Positions 22,054 through 26,216 of a DNA stretch of 64,000 nucleotides are shown in pieces. Below the pieces are notes generated by a model. It saw nothing but the letters and a program-made list of their open reading frames with translations, made no database searches and had not been told where the DNA came from. Each line of letters begins with the position of its first letter. Position 1 is the stretch's first letter. Location: positions 25,759 to 89,758 of the forward strand of contig JBCKKC010000001.1 in the NCBI GenBank assembly GCA_038904395.1, read 5' to 3'. Source of the stretch: Acidimicrobiia bacterium (GTDB lineage Bacteria; Actinomycetota; Acidimicrobiia; UBA2766). A program made the position numbers and the translations under genes.

Positions 22054-24039
22054 CTAGCCAGCGGGGGCAAACGCAATGGCGGCATCGAGGTGGCGCTGCA
22101 AAGAATCACACAGGTCGCGTATCTGGTCGTTGAGGGGCAATTCGGTGCGGGAGGAGTCATGACGTTGACCGACATGGGCAATCAGATTTGGTGAATAAGG
22201 AATGTCGACGAAACGGCACACTCCTTGCATTACCTGGTCAGCATCGTCAACAAAATCATCGTATGACACCAACCGAACGTCGGGTCGCTCATCGAGGGCC
22301 AGCTCGAAATAGAGAACATTTCGGACGTACCAGAACAGTGCGGCCGCGTCGAACTCTGACAAGGTGTCAAAGTCGAAGCCTTTCACTAGGGCGAGCGTCT
22401 CGTCAGAAATGCGCTCGCCTTGCCACGACCCGTCAGCGTTACCAGCAGCGATGTCTCGCAGGATCCGCCAGTTAGCAGCGCCAAATTTGGCTACGGCCGA
22501 ACGGGCCCGATCCTGGTAGTTGCGATACGCCCAAATAGCCTTGCCGCCAAAACCAATGTCGTCCAGCAAATGATCGATCCGCTGCGAATCACACAACGGC
22601 TTGAAGAGAATAAACTTGTGCGCGGAGCCGGCAATGAGGCGGGCAATGCCGGAGTCATCACGCAGTCGGAAGCGGTCGAAGGCCTGCCTGTCGTTCTCGT
22701 TACGCACCTCGATCTCGGGTAGCGCTTCAAGGCCTCGCAAGATCATGTTGGTGCCAGAACGCTGCGCCCCCACTATCCAGATTGGGACCGCCCCCGGTGA
22801 TTCACCAACATGTTGGCGGCGCCACTGCCATTTCGTGAAGGCTGTGCTAGCCCGTTCGATTGGATCAAGTCGGTCTTCTTCAACAATTCGACTCAAACCT
22901 TGGTCTCGAATCCAATTAATGTGCCGACCGACGCGCAGCACGGAACGGGTTAATCCCGACTCGTTTTCAAGGCTGCTCCCCACCGCTTTGGTGTCACTTC
23001 TAGGAAAATGGGCCTCTTCAGGAGCCTCGACAGGCGAAAGCCGCGGCTGGCGGGGGTAGTCAAAGTGGGCGAGAAACGGCGCTGTGATCAATCCGACGGT
23101 CGCTCGGTCGCTCGTGGCCATCTTGGTTCGCCAACGATCGTCCTGGCGCAATTCGACTTGGCCGTGTTTGAGCCGATCGGGATTTCCAGCCACAGAATGA
23201 GTGGCGTGCAACTCGGCCGAAGTGTCGCCGGTAAACATATCGAGGGGACGGGATTGCTCGCCCAGCATCTCCAAAATGCGGGTCACGGCTGCTTGAGGCT
23301 GGGCCACGAAGTCTTCATACTTTAAGGCCATATACCCTTGAACATTGCGTTGGCACGCTGTCTCTGCTACCACGTGCCACAGATCCCACAACAAAGCACT
23401 TTTAGCCGAAGATAGGCGTTCCATCTCGAACTGTCGACCAGAAGACCCCACTCGATACTGGTCGATAGCCAAACTCCCCGGCATGTCGGGCTTGGCTTTG
23501 TGTGTCACCCACGAGTAGGCAGCAGCTTGCGGGTCCCTTAAGAGGTGAACGACATAGAGGTCGATGTTGGCAAACTTGCTGAGCAAGTGGGCATAGGTAG
23601 GGAGTTTCGACGAGTCGATGATGACATCACAATTAGTGACGGTCTTGATGGCAGTGTAAAGCTTGGCCAAAGGAGGCGTGACCTCAATGAGCTCGTCAGT
23701 CGGCGTACGGGACGAGGGCCAGTAATGCTTTAGATAGACAGCGGGGAGATTCCGCACTCGAGTGAGCGCATGCAGATTCGCCACCTGACGTTCGGCGGAG
23801 TCTCGATCGTTGTCGATGCCTGCCTCTTTGAGGATCGTGGTCCACATAGGGCATTCACTGAAGACAAGGCCACACCCACACAGCCGGTCCTCGAGGATTC
23901 CGCGCTGCCACAGGTAGCGAATCTCGCCCCCATCGAAAAATCCGTCAATTTGGCCGAGAATGTTGGCCAGAAGCGTGCTGCCGCTGCGACCGGTCCCGGC
24001 GATATAAAGTACTTTTACCTTCGATGCGTTATCCATCAT
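22054..24039 (-). CDS. tandem two-domain sulfotransferase
   Basis: Two PAPS 5'-phosphosulfate-binding loops (IAGTGRSGSTL and IVGAQRSGTNM), each followed by an RD-type 3'-PB region (HLLRDPQAAAYS). The true start MMDNASKVKVLYIAG is at 24039, and the upstream part of the listed ORF is a translated MITE. Confidence 0.8.
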   Translation of the reverse strand: MMDNASKVKVLYIAGTGRSGSTLLANILGQIDGFFDGGEIRYLWQRGILEDRLCGCGLVFSECPMWTTILKEAGIDNDRDSAERQVANLHALTRVRNLPAVYLKHYWPSSRTPTDELIEVTPPLAKLYTAIKTVTNCDVIIDSSKLPTYAHLLSKFANIDLYVVHLLRDPQAAAYSWVTHKAKPDMPGSLAIDQYRVGSSGRQFEMERLSSAKSALLWDLWHVVAETACQRNVQGYMALKYEDFVAQPQAAVTRILEMLGEQSRPLDMFTGDTSAELHATHSVAGNPDRLKHGQVELRQDDRWRTKMATSDRATVGLITAPFLAHFDYPRQPRLSPVEAPEEAHFPRSDTKAVGSSLENESGLTRSVLRVGRHINWIRDQGLSRIVEEDRLDPIERASTAFTKWQWRRQHVGESPGAVPIWIVGAQRSGTNMILRGLEALPEIEVRNENDRQAFDRFRLRDDSGIARLIAGSAHKFILFKPLCDSQRIDHLLDDIGFGGKAIWAYRNYQDRARSAVAKFGAANWRILRDIAAGNADGSWQGERISDETLALVKGFDFDTLSEFDAAALFWYVRNVLYFELALDERPDVRLVSYDDFVDDADQVMQGVCRFVDIPYSPNLIAHVGQRHDSSRTELPLNDQIRDLCDSLQRHLDAAIAFAPAG

Positions 24040-24040
24040 G

Positions 24041-24205
24041 AGTGCGAGCGTAGCAAGCAATCCGGAGCAGAATCGAATCTGCCGGTGAATCTGTGGCTGA
24101 ACCCGTGGTTTCGCCCCCGATGGATCCTCACGCCCTGGCTGGCGCCAGGGCTCAGGATGACGGGGCTGTTGGCTGGCGCCAGGGCTCAGGATGACTAAGG
24201 GGTTA
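24041..24205. repeat. MITE-like repeat element, partial/degenerate copy E5
   Basis: TGCGAGCGTAGCAAGCAATCC, ..GATGGATCCTCACGCCCTGGCTGGCGCCAGGGCTCAGGATGACGG, plus a duplicated GGCTGGCGCCAGGGCTCAGGATGAC segment. It abuts the sulfotransferase start codon and lies in the divergent promoter region. Confidence 0.65.
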
Positions 24206-24246
24206 CGTCTGGCCATTCTTGTGTCAAAAGTGCTAACACAAGGGGC

Positions 24247-25170
24247 ATGGATATCAAACAGTTAGCTGCCGCCCCAGTTTTCATCGTTGGCGCACCACGC
24301 TCGGGAACGAGTCTCGTCTACAAGTCGTTGTGCCTGCATGACGAAGTTTCATACATCTCCAATTGGCTACGCCGAACACCCGGCGTAGCGGAAGTCGCAG
24401 CCCTGAACCGGCTCGGGCCCAGATTTCCCCAATTTCGCAAACGGGCTTGGTTCGGCGGCGGGAACGCCTATGCATATGGCCATAGTCGAGGGCTGGCGGA
24501 ACAGCTCTTTGTACAGCCGACTGAAGGCGAACCGGTATTTGCACATTGCGGAGTCCCTTCGGCGCCCAGCCTGGGCGAACTCTCGGTTGCGTCAGTCTCC
24601 AGCGAGTCACTAGCGCTGCTGCGCAAAACTATCGGGCTGATCGAGCATTACAGCGGCGGTCGCGTTTTTGTCAACAAGCGAATCGCCAACAACCAGCGCA
24701 TACCGCTGCTGCTGGAAGCATTTCCCGAAGCACGATTCATACACATTGTGCGTGACGGGCGTGCAGTGGCCTATTCGTGCAGCCGCGTCGACTGGTGGCC
24801 GAACCACTACGTGTGGTGGTACGGGGGAACTCCGCAAGAATGGGGGCGTTCCGGAAACGATCCATGGGAATTGTGTGCCCGCAACTGGCTGGAAGAACTT
24901 CACTCACTCGAGGTTGGGCTGAGTGTGGCTCCCGCCGAGCAGGTCATCCAGCTACGTTACGAAGATCTGGTCGCAGCCCCTGTCGATGCACTGACTCGTC
25001 TGGCAACATTCATGGGACTGCCCGAGAGTCCCGATTGGCAGGGCCTTTTGCTGACGCTACCTTTCCCCGACAAGAATGAAGCATGGCGAGACAAGATGCC
25101 CGACCCAGCAATTAACCTTGTCGAGAAGATTCAACACGAAGCCTTAGTTAGCAACGGTTACTCAATATGA
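24247..25170 (+). CDS. sulfotransferase-family protein
   Basis: 5'-PSB loop FIVGAPRSGTSL, 3'-PB IHIVRDGRAVAYS, and a WWPNHYVWWYGG region. 307 aa. Confidence 0.8.
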   Translation: MDIKQLAAAPVFIVGAPRSGTSLVYKSLCLHDEVSYISNWLRRTPGVAEVAALNRLGPRFPQFRKRAWFGGGNAYAYGHSRGLAEQLFVQPTEGEPVFAHCGVPSAPSLGELSVASVSSESLALLRKTIGLIEHYSGGRVFVNKRIANNQRIPLLLEAFPEARFIHIVRDGRAVAYSCSRVDWWPNHYVWWYGGTPQEWGRSGNDPWELCARNWLEELHSLEVGLSVAPAEQVIQLRYEDLVAAPVDALTRLATFMGLPESPDWQGLLLTLPFPDKNEAWRDKMPDPAINLVEKIQHEALVSNGYSI

Positions 25171-25301
25171 CCCAAATTCGCCAACCTGATCACCCCAAGA
25201 AACATATTCATTCACTTCGCCCTATCCAAGGTGTCGCTACTAGGCAGCCTGGATTGCGACGCGACGGCTGGCGCCTTGCTCGCAATGACGGGAGGACGTG
25301 A

Positions 25302-26216
25302 ATGGCTACCCACCACGAAGACCGAGGCGCCGTCAACGAGACCCAATTTGTTTTCTTCCTGGGCACGGGACGATGCGGCTCAAGCCTGGTGCATGAAATC
25401 GTGGCTCGACATCCCGATGTCGGTTTCATCTCGAACATTGACGACCGGCTGGCAACCCGTTCGGGCACAGGCCGCTGGAACAATGCCATCTATCGCCACA
25501 TCCCGGCCTATCTAACCCAAAAGGGCCGCGCCCGTTACGCACCATCGGAGGGATACAATCTGCTCGACAAGCAGGTGGCCCCTTTGTTATCGCGCCCGTT
25601 CCGCGACCTTGTAGCGACAGATGCAACACCTTGGCTAAACCAGCGCGTGCGAACAGTGTTCGACAGCCGGGCCCTCGATCAGTCCAAGCCAGTATTTTCG
25701 CACAAGTTCACGGGATGGCCCCGAGCCGGATTCCTCAGCGCCATCTTTCCCAACGCTCGTTTCGTTCATATCGTGCGAGATGGTCGTGCCGTGGCCAACT
25801 CTTGGCTACAAATGCCCTGGTGGGATGGCTACAAAGGCCCGTTCCAGTGGCAGTGGGGTCCTCTGCCAGAAGCCTATGAAGATGAATGGGTTGGCAGCGA
25901 CCGGTCTCATGTGGTTCTGGCAGGCATCGCTTGGAAAATCCTCATCGACGCTTTCGAGTCCGCACAAGCCCGCATCTCGCCAAGCAACTGGCTGAATATA
26001 CGCTACGAAGAGTTAGTCTCGGCGCCAAAGCCCGCCATGGAACAGTTACTCGAATTCCTCGACCTTCAATGGACACCCGAATTCGCTCGAGGCTTCGCCC
26101 ATTACAAATTCGATGCCAAACGAACTGAAGCATTCCGGGACGACCTCGCACCATGGGATATCGACCAACTCGACATGTCCCTCAAAGACCACTTGGAAGC
26201 ATGGGGCTACTCCTAG
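25302..26216 (+). CDS. sulfotransferase-family protein (paralog of the previous gene)
   Basis: FFLGTGRCGSSL and VHIVRDGRAVANS, colinear with the 24247..25170 product. Confidence 0.8.
   Translation: MATHHEDRGAVNETQFVFFLGTGRCGSSLVHEIVARHPDVGFISNIDDRLATRSGTGRWNNAIYRHIPAYLTQKGRARYAPSEGYNLLDKQVAPLLSRPFRDLVATDATPWLNQRVRTVFDSRALDQSKPVFSHKFTGWPRAGFLSAIFPNARFVHIVRDGRAVANSWLQMPWWDGYKGPFQWQWGPLPEAYEDEWVGSDRSHVVLAGIAWKILIDAFESAQARISPSNWLNIRYEELVSAPKPAMEQLLEFLDLQWTPEFARGFAHYKFDAKRTEAFRDDLAPWDIDQLDMSLKDHLEAWGYS

Follow-up and report, generated by a model that had tools for sequence, protein, structure and literature searches.

A four-domain sulfotransferase module with a probable role in glycan sulfation, detached from glycan genes in an Acidimicrobiia-like lineage

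Introduction

Sulfated bacterial polysaccharides are stated to be known from cyanobacteria only (PMC8205485, PMC13390465), with actinomycetes raised as a possibility from one gene cluster (PMC13390465). The present analysis concerns three sulfotransferase (ST) genes, with four ST domains between them, in a 64,000-nucleotide stretch of an Acidimicrobiia bacterium (GenBank assembly GCA_038904395.1, contig JBCKKC010000001.1, positions 25,759 to 89,758). This whole stretch is referred to as the window, and positions are counted from its first letter. One of the genes encodes a fused protein (ST-ST) with an N-type and a C-type domain, the other two encode single-domain proteins (ST2 and ST3), and the fused gene lies next to that of a large secreted protein with an NHL beta-propeller (NHL1227). 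Orthologues of all four domains occur in polysaccharide gene clusters of other genomes, where those of ST2 and ST3 are termed STa and STb, and the module probably serves to sulfate a glycan.

In Synechocystis sp. PCC 6803, the xss cluster encodes two STs together with Wzx/Wzy, and its product, synechan, has two sulfates per repeat unit, which in the published scheme is assembled and modified at the cytoplasmic face (PMC8205485). STs and sulfates per repeat unit thus agree in number. The likeness to the window is one of gene organisation: PF13469/PF00685-type STs are encoded with a Wzx/Wzy/polysaccharide copolymerase pathway, as they are for orthologues of the window STs. The xss cluster differs in having two single-domain STs in a cyanobacterium, in contrast to four domains, two of them fused, in monoderm Actinomycetota and Dormibacterota, and the window itself is without a linked glycan gene. 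The wps-1 cluster of Actinoplanes missouriensis holds Wzx/Wzy/Wzz and two STs (WpsB, WpsH) beside a sulfate adenylyltransferase/adenosine 5'-phosphosulfate (APS) kinase gene, and is predicted to make a sulfated exopolysaccharide (PMC13390465). Here the likeness is in gene content, as Micromonospora loci of the same family (Micromonosporaceae) hold N-type and C-type STs, STb, Wzy_C and GT4; wps-1 differs in combining its two STs with a methyltransferase, a GH26 enzyme and a kinase-like protein, and its product is itself a prediction. By analogy, the window module would work like the ST component of a synechan-type pathway and probably like that of wps-1.

The tyrosylprotein sulfotransferases TPST1/2 and RaxST have 5'-phosphosulfate-binding and 3'-phosphate-binding motifs near-identical to those of ST2 and ST3, and TPSTs are the top PDB sequence and fold matches. 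However, the sequence likeness of ST2 and ST3 is limited to the cofactor motifs; an acceptor peptide gene, a type I exporter and acidic-tyrosine enrichment are lacking, and the orthologues stand in a glycan context. The ST domains of CurM and olefin synthase (OLS) (4gbm, 4gox) agree with the ST-ST family in fold, and 4gox is its best PDB profile match (E = 1.4e-11, N domain), but these are polyketide synthase domains acting on acyl groups bound to acyl carrier protein, and no polyketide synthase is present in the window or in related loci. NoeE, NodH and Stf0-3 are likewise bacterial STs that act on glyco-conjugates with 3'-phosphoadenosine-5'-phosphosulfate (PAPS) as donor, although the window STs fall outside both the NoeE family (22 bits against a cut-off of 500) and the Stf0 family (15 bits against 22).

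The initial annotation had called the block of STs beside large secreted propellers a system not yet described, and this holds only in part. Wzx/Wzy clusters of many metagenome-assembled genomes and of Micromonospora contain the same ST set as a conserved part, and ST-bearing clusters have been published (PMC8205485, PMC13390465). What distinguishes the module from the known systems is the presence of four domain types, two of them fused, their conservation in two phyla, and their detachment from glycan genes before a secreted propeller. No literature combining the four ST types, the fusion, the two-phylum spread and the detachment was found.

Sulfotransferase genes of the window

Judged from sequence, all four domains are PAPS-type sulfotransferases, with catalysis predicted. 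Sulfotransfer_3 (PF13469; gathering cut-off 27) scored 92.7 bits for ST2 and 86.3 bits for ST3 and, when the halves of ST-ST were scanned separately, 38.6 bits for the N half and 35.3 bits for the C half; Sulfotransfer_1 exceeded its cut-off of 22 bits for all four domains. A six-frame motif scan of the window placed G-x-x-R-[SC]-G-[ST] loops within long open reading frames (ORFs) at 24289, 25362, 23997 and 22770, and a fifth match, at 55840, has stop codons on either side. The PAPS-binding loops read GTGRSGST, GAQRSGTN, GAPRSGTS and GTGRCGSS, and the 3'-phosphate motifs are of the form RDPxxxxxS or RDGRAVAxS. The three genes and four PAPS-type domains of the initial annotation were thus recovered as ORFs at the positions it gave, all above Pfam cut-offs; its concern that the loops might belong to generic P-loop ATPases is answered by the Pfam scores, the loops themselves and the fold matches of ST-ST.

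In an alignment of 25 sequences of the ST-ST family, the 5'-phosphosulfate loop and the 3'-phosphate R...S motif are invariant or nearly so, and the window protein retains all 95 invariant columns. Because its PAPS loops and the family's other invariant residues are intact, ST-ST is under constraint and no decaying relic. The AlphaFold (AF2) model of the fused protein has a mean predicted local distance difference test (pLDDT) score of 80, and comparison with the PDB by Foldseek returned PAPS sulfotransferases nearly exclusively (27 of 27 matches at E <= 0.001), so that the sulfotransferase fold is confirmed at the level of the model. The start at 24039 (MDNASKVKVLYIAGTGRSGST) is consistent with 24 homologues; the NCBI-annotated form of 720 aa (P0001) has an extra Arg/Pro-rich extension that is lacking in homologues. 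No signal peptide is visible in the sequences of the three window STs.

The same sulfotransferase set in other genomes

More than 185 proteins are homologous to the fused protein at 38-48% identity and share its length and architecture; most come from metagenome-assembled genomes of Dormibacterota and some from Actinomycetota. Each window domain pairs with one Dormibacteria counterpart (N with N, C with C, ST2 with STa, ST3 with STb) at 45-56% identity and 241-355 bits, whereas the window domains are at most 27% identical to one another (17-87 bits). ST2, for example, is 46% identical over its full length to STa of the Dormibacteria locus L001 and 26% identical to ST3, which in turn shares 56-58% identity with STb of Dormibacteria and Acidimicrobiia. 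This one-to-one pairing argues that the set is old, has been co-inherited and comprises four different specificities. Recent local amplification of the STs was considered and rejected, the domains being closer to their Dormibacteria counterparts than to each other.

The genomic context was compared at 84 loci, four from one Dormibacteria genome (L001-L004) and 80 from a scan of one genome per species, by matching six-frame ORFs to the window proteins and to the L001 proteins. In L001-L004 the order is STa, STb, a Bac_transf priming transferase, two secreted proteins without assigned function, Wzz and ST-ST, followed by a MurJ/Wzx-type flippase, Wzy_C, two GT4 glycosyltransferases and two NHL proteins. 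At 36 of the 38 species-level loci with a fused gene, the gene of the MurJ-like flippase starts directly 3' of ST-ST on the same strand. Likewise, three or more markers of the pathway, out of a set of six (Bac_transf priming transferase, Wzz, MurJ, Wzy_C and two GT4), lie within 10 kb at 36 of the 38. The two exceptions, L018 (Acidimicrobiia STL-ACT9) and L031 (ATB1), are the nearest available relatives of the window organism, judging by organism labels that match those of the top GyrB matches. Orthologues of STa and STb are found within the same glycan clusters as ST-ST. Separate adjacent genes encode the N-type and C-type domains in similar clusters of Micromonospora and other actinomycetes, and the Micromonospora loci listed above with their unfused STs and STb include STa in some cases. 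Micromonospora carbonacea DSM 43168 (L049) is a cultured strain with the unfused genes.

APS-kinase (CysC)-like ORFs occur no more than 10 kb from the gene of ST-ST or of the C-type ST at 10 of the 84 loci, which indicates, at sequence level, a dedicated supply of PAPS there. The Gaiellales locus L059 also carries a Polysacc_synt/MatE flippase, two GHL15 proteins, an RGI_lyase-domain protein and an ABC-2 transporter, and the glycan context therefore persists at that locus. At L018, a BY-kinase-like AAA_31 protein and a MurJ-like flippase are found near ST-ST.

The GyrB protein of the window is 66-71% identical to proteins of Acidimicrobiia bacterium and Actinobacteria bacterium ATB1 and about 55% identical to those of other Actinomycetota, and the window proteins that were looked up are singletons at 90% identity; the organism therefore belongs to an isolated Acidimicrobiia-like lineage of Actinomycetota. 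The nearest genomes for synteny stand at about 48% ST identity and 71% GyrB identity, so that comparisons of conservation are long-range. No mention of sulfotransferases in Dormibacteria was found in the literature.

Probable function of the module

Since the orthologues are embedded in Wzx/Wzy clusters, a glycan is the most likely acceptor, and this comparative context backs the glycan option among the substrates that the initial annotation had listed. The four domains would probably form a cytoplasmic PAPS-dependent module that sulfates a lipid-linked glycan repeat unit, and in the window organism this module has been detached from the glycan genes. The cofactor PAPS is itself cytoplasmic. 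In the proposed mechanism, STa, STb and the fused N-type and C-type ST would each use PAPS to sulfate a separate hydroxyl of an oligosaccharide repeat unit that is linked to undecaprenyl phosphate at the cytoplasmic face of the membrane. The sulfated unit would then be flipped by the MurJ/Wzx-type flippase, and a Wzy-type polymerase would join the units. The resulting polysaccharide, either on the cell surface or extracellular, would be heavily sulfated, with as many as four sulfates in each repeat. In the window organism, the genes for glycan assembly and PAPS synthesis would lie elsewhere in the genome; for the glycan genes this is needed because none is found within 64 kb.

Several observations weigh against this interpretation. 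Pfam scans of the window, which covered ORFs from 200 aa upwards, returned no gene for a glycosyltransferase, flippase, polymerase, chain-length regulator or priming transferase, and glycan-assembly genes are thus absent within 20-38 kb of the ST module. The window itself therefore gives no evidence for a glycan, and the argument draws wholly on orthologues that are 45-58% identical. In Wzx/Wzy sulfated-polysaccharide clusters, STs and assembly genes stand in one locus, as at 36 of the 38 related loci; the window has the STs without the assembly genes and is therefore treated as a detached module, not as a complete cluster. At L018, the closest relative for which a long contig exists, ST-ST is moreover directly followed by a 1,144-aa protein with Ig/fn3 domains and a BNR/Sortilin-Vps10 propeller, with no flippase in that place, and the lineage of L018 and the window organism may have put the module to another use. 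Similarity of sequence and fold also fails to separate glycan, peptide and acyl acceptors, as TPST, CurM ST and heparan sulfate 3-O-sulfotransferase (3-OST) score alike; assignment of the substrate from sequence or fold was for this reason rejected. In every lineage that carries the ST set, its acceptor and its sulfated product are inferred by analogy.

As the initial annotation had reported, genes of PAPS synthesis are missing from the window: no APS kinase, ATP sulfurylase or CysDN was found when every ORF of 200 aa or more was scanned with Pfam, and a tblastn search of the window with CysC gave a best E no better than 0.1.

Alternative explanations

The initial annotation had also suggested, by analogy to RaxST, that tyrosines of neighbouring secreted proteins or peptides are sulfated; such a reaction of the RaxST or TPST type, taking place ahead of export, is very improbable. 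The loops of ST2 and ST3 (GAPRSGTSL, RDGRAVAYS/RDGRAVANS) do match TPST1/2 best in the PDB (E between 1.5e-6 and about 1e-3), TPST structures lead the ST-ST fold search, and one Tyr of a downstream secreted acidic protein has the context KKLYDSDDDD. However, the sequence matches span just 25-47 residues at the PAPS-binding motifs, and CurM ST, OLS ST and 3-OST are about equal to TPST in the fold search. The raxX-raxSTAB cluster includes a RaxX-type peptide gene and a RaxA/B exporter (PMC6637879); in the window, neither a RaxX-like nor another small acidic Tyr-containing ORF was found in intergenic regions, and Pfam scans returned no gene for a peptidase-ABC exporter or a RaxA-like protein, nor any ABC or membrane fusion protein exporter gene close to the STs. 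The Tyr-rich acidic motifs that had been proposed as a check on NHL1227 show no excess (2 sites against 1.8 +/- 1.3 in shuffles), and the orthologues of all four domains lie in glycan clusters. Sulfation of a lipid or small molecule, such as a sulfation of menaquinone like that by Stf3 of Mycobacterium, or formation of a sulfoglycolipid, can be given scarcely any weight either. It is suggested by the genes that follow ST3, which encode a MenB-type ECH_1 protein (26489-27391, +) and a UbiA/MenA-type prenyltransferase (27593-28522, +), and by the formation of sulfomenaquinone in actinobacteria through CYP128 and Stf3 (PMC7404182). Pfam scans of the window found no P450, though, and MenA/MenB homologues are absent near the STs at all 84 related loci. 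The Stf0 family (PF09037) reaches 15.4 bits, below its cut-off of 22, with a matched stretch of only 30 residues, and the match to PDB entry 2zq5, which we take to be mycobacterial Stf1 and which the search labels 'Putative uncharacterized protein', is weak (E = 0.07). In addition, a REP-like element lies between ST3 and the menB-type gene.

A functional pairing of the STs with large secreted beta-propellers is a more serious competitor, if still a rather unlikely one. The propellers would then carry an O-linked sulfated glycan, or bind, anchor or cleave the sulfated polymer, and ST-ST would be co-transcribed with its partner. In the window, the stop codon of ST-ST (22054) is separated from the ATG of NHL1227 (21995) by 58 bp on the same strand, in agreement with the initial annotation, and no terminator-like site was found in this gap. 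At 19 of the 80 species-level loci, an ST gene has NHL ORFs of 300 aa or more within 10 kb, in varied arrangements, and at L018 the protein after ST-ST is a propeller of another family. Wzy_C is also a domain of O-oligosaccharyltransferases, and some polysaccharide lyases that act on sulfated glycans are beta-propellers. On the other side, the propellers are not orthologous to one another, and that of NHL1227 is a generic teneurin-type NHL array with 7,290 matches in many phyla. An NHL gene is lacking at 61 of the 80 loci, including all Micromonospora loci, and NHL-type genes are common in these genomes, the third one of the window being 17 kb away. Because the recurrence was counted without a background rate, chance being one possible source of it, the link between propellers and STs is recurrent but unproven. 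A wider version of this idea is put forward tentatively: the ST module would mark a widespread, heavily sulfated surface glycan of soil monoderms, with secreted propellers as its dedicated partners (carriers, or binding or processing proteins) and with ST-ST transcriptionally coupled to a propeller in the Acidimicrobiia-like lineage. As part of the same suggestion, and no less speculatively, that glycan would be carried by Dormibacterota, Acidimicrobiia, Gaiellales and Micromonosporaceae. Glycan sulfation by the four-domain module, with the propellers as neighbours, nevertheless remains the favoured explanation.

Coordinates and secreted neighbours

Table 1. Features of the sulfotransferase locus, its neighbours and related loci
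Feature	Position	Strand	Basis or remark
Fused two-domain sulfotransferase (ST-ST), 661 aa	22054..24039	−	Pfam on both halves, 25-sequence alignment, AF2 model, >185 same-architecture homologues
ST-ST N domain	~aa 1-335, nt 23035-24039	−	Loop GTGRSGST, invariant E39/R41, K145, RDPxxxxxS
ST-ST linker, low-confidence	aa 334-361	−	AF2 model
ST-ST C domain	~aa 400-661, nt 22054-22842	−	Loop GAQRSGTNM
ST2, single-domain, 307 aa	24247..25170	+	GAPRSGTSL / RDGRAVAYS; orthologue of STa in Dormibacteria clusters
ST3, single-domain, 304 aa	25302..26216	+	GTGRCGSSL / RDGRAVANS; orthologue of STb
Divergent intergenic region ST-ST / ST2	24040..24246	.	Holds doubled REP-like element 24121-24202
NHL1227, secreted, 1,227 aa	18312..21995	−	TEN_NHL 215 bits; signal-like N terminus; neighbour of the module
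Vgb-lyase-type beta-propeller protein, secreted, 529 aa	16462..18051	−	Vgb_lyase 64.7 bits; next same-strand gene
Inverted doubled REP-like element	26226..26307	.	Directly downstream of ST3
Loci with APS-kinase-like ORFs	L015, L024, L025, L029, L030, L038, L040, L045, L061, L083		Some ORFs within ~600-aa proteins

NHL1227 comprises a signal peptide, an NHL beta-propeller (about aa 60-700), a stretch of about 350 aa that resembles a coiled coil and, at the C-terminus, a rare domain of about 110 aa. Its adjacency to ST-ST may allow co-transcription but is no evidence for NHL1227 as the substrate; scans for promoters and terminators in 16000-26600 gave counts at the level of shuffles. Homologues of NHL1227 cover the propeller part alone (about 53% of the query), and none spans the coiled-coil or the C-terminus. 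There is almost no BLAST match to it among the 84 ST loci, and it is therefore no conserved member of the ST module. Conservation of the neighbourhood with this gene, on which the initial annotation had laid weight, thus does not hold at long range for NHL1227 itself, although other large secreted propellers do recur beside the STs. Loci that carry NHL genes belong to one Dormibacteria clade, in which these genes stand at the 3' edge of the cluster, to Gaiellales and to uncultured Actinomycetes. In the Gaiellales loci L059, L065 and L075, up to four tandem NHL genes are divergent from the ST, and at L053 a 2,144-aa NHL protein comes after STa and STb. L018 has propeller paralogues at 11685-15119 (+) and, on the opposite strand, at 15180-18782 (−, 1,200 aa), each with Ig-like, fn3 and BNR/Sortilin-Vps10 domains. 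No literature linking sulfotransferases with NHL proteins in polysaccharide clusters was found.

The C-terminal domain of NHL1227 (18315-18644, −) reads H-I-x-x-R-H ... E-x-x-C-G-x-x-I-G-T ... L-R-I-V ... V-I-T-A-Y-P, and was found among 1.8 billion representatives in two proteins only, P0370 and P0371, both of which combine NHL and coiled-coil regions. Even at E = 10 this domain matches nothing in Pfam, and a metagenome scan with it gave no match. The AF2 model, of moderate confidence (pLDDT 67.5), has three helices and a six-stranded sheet. Comparison with the PDB gave no significant fold match, the best being a chain of the YxiD-YxxD toxin-immunity complex (TM-score 0.52, E = 0.11), so that the model offers a hint only of a toxin-like domain. 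The C-terminal end of the 529-aa propeller protein (16465-16854, −, ...ILAAYP) is weakly related to that of NHL1227 (E = 0.003 in a single pairwise comparison).

Further genes of this part of the window were also noted. A third secreted NHL protein, of 768 aa (3326-5632, −), lies 17 kb away, divergent from a paralogue of AsnB-type asparagine synthase/amidotransferase (5913-7880, +); by BLAST it is nearer than NHL1227 to the ST-linked NHL proteins of Gaiellales. A secreted low-complexity protein of 436 aa (14702-16012, −) has a basic, Ala/Lys-rich N half with repeats such as GGAKS[KQ]QPG[GA]KPAAKK and a very acidic C half with two repeats (...LPPGYVRIPRDLARPEPVRWGSSDDGDNDD / ...LLPGEVRVPVGLKRPSPVDWKKLYDSDDDD); neither a Pfam match nor a homologue at the related ST loci was found for it. 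An ORF of 556 aa (12873-14543, −) joins a response-regulator receiver, a GAF domain and a SpoIIE/PP2C phosphatase, and shares its strand with the genes of ST-ST, NHL1227, the 529-aa propeller and the acidic protein; it could be the regulator of this string of genes.

Repeat element and other observations

The window contains a dispersed element resembling repetitive extragenic palindromes (REP) or miniature inverted-repeat transposable elements (MITE), with the core GGATCCTCACGCCCTGGCTGGCGCCAGGGCTCAGGATGACGG and the hairpin CCCTGGC-TGGC-GCCAGGG; fuller copies are about 85 nt long. The 21-nt core is present in 10 copies against 0 expected, mostly intergenic (8778, 24141, 24175, 26233, 26267, 27425, 30472, 43707, 45149 and 62087). 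Two 82-nt doubled copies, 24121-24202 and 26226-26307, form an inverted pair with 88% complementarity that brackets ST2-ST3. Another copy (45149-45169) lies inside the 619-aa AtuA ORF 43744-45603 without breaking its frame, in the linker between AtuA (aa 5-442) and AtuA_ferredoxin (aa 503-595). Beside gyrB, a GyrA/ParC-type subunit (49038-50750, −) has just 570 aa, with DNA_topoisoIV at aa 89-549 and no Pfam match for a C-terminal domain like that of full-length GyrA.

Significance

The window alone adds little to the mechanism, but it shows the module persisting intact apart from glycan genes; with this detachment and the recurrent propeller neighbours, a second use of the module is conceivable. 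Across Dormibacterota and several orders of Actinomycetota, the four-domain set is conserved in Wzx/Wzy clusters, some with their own APS kinase. From this, surface glycans with a high degree of sulfation are predicted to be common, beyond the cyanobacteria, among abundant soil bacteria, most of them uncultured. The prediction is open to test in cultured Micromonospora with the unfused genes, and new sulfotransferases for making sulfated polymers would follow.

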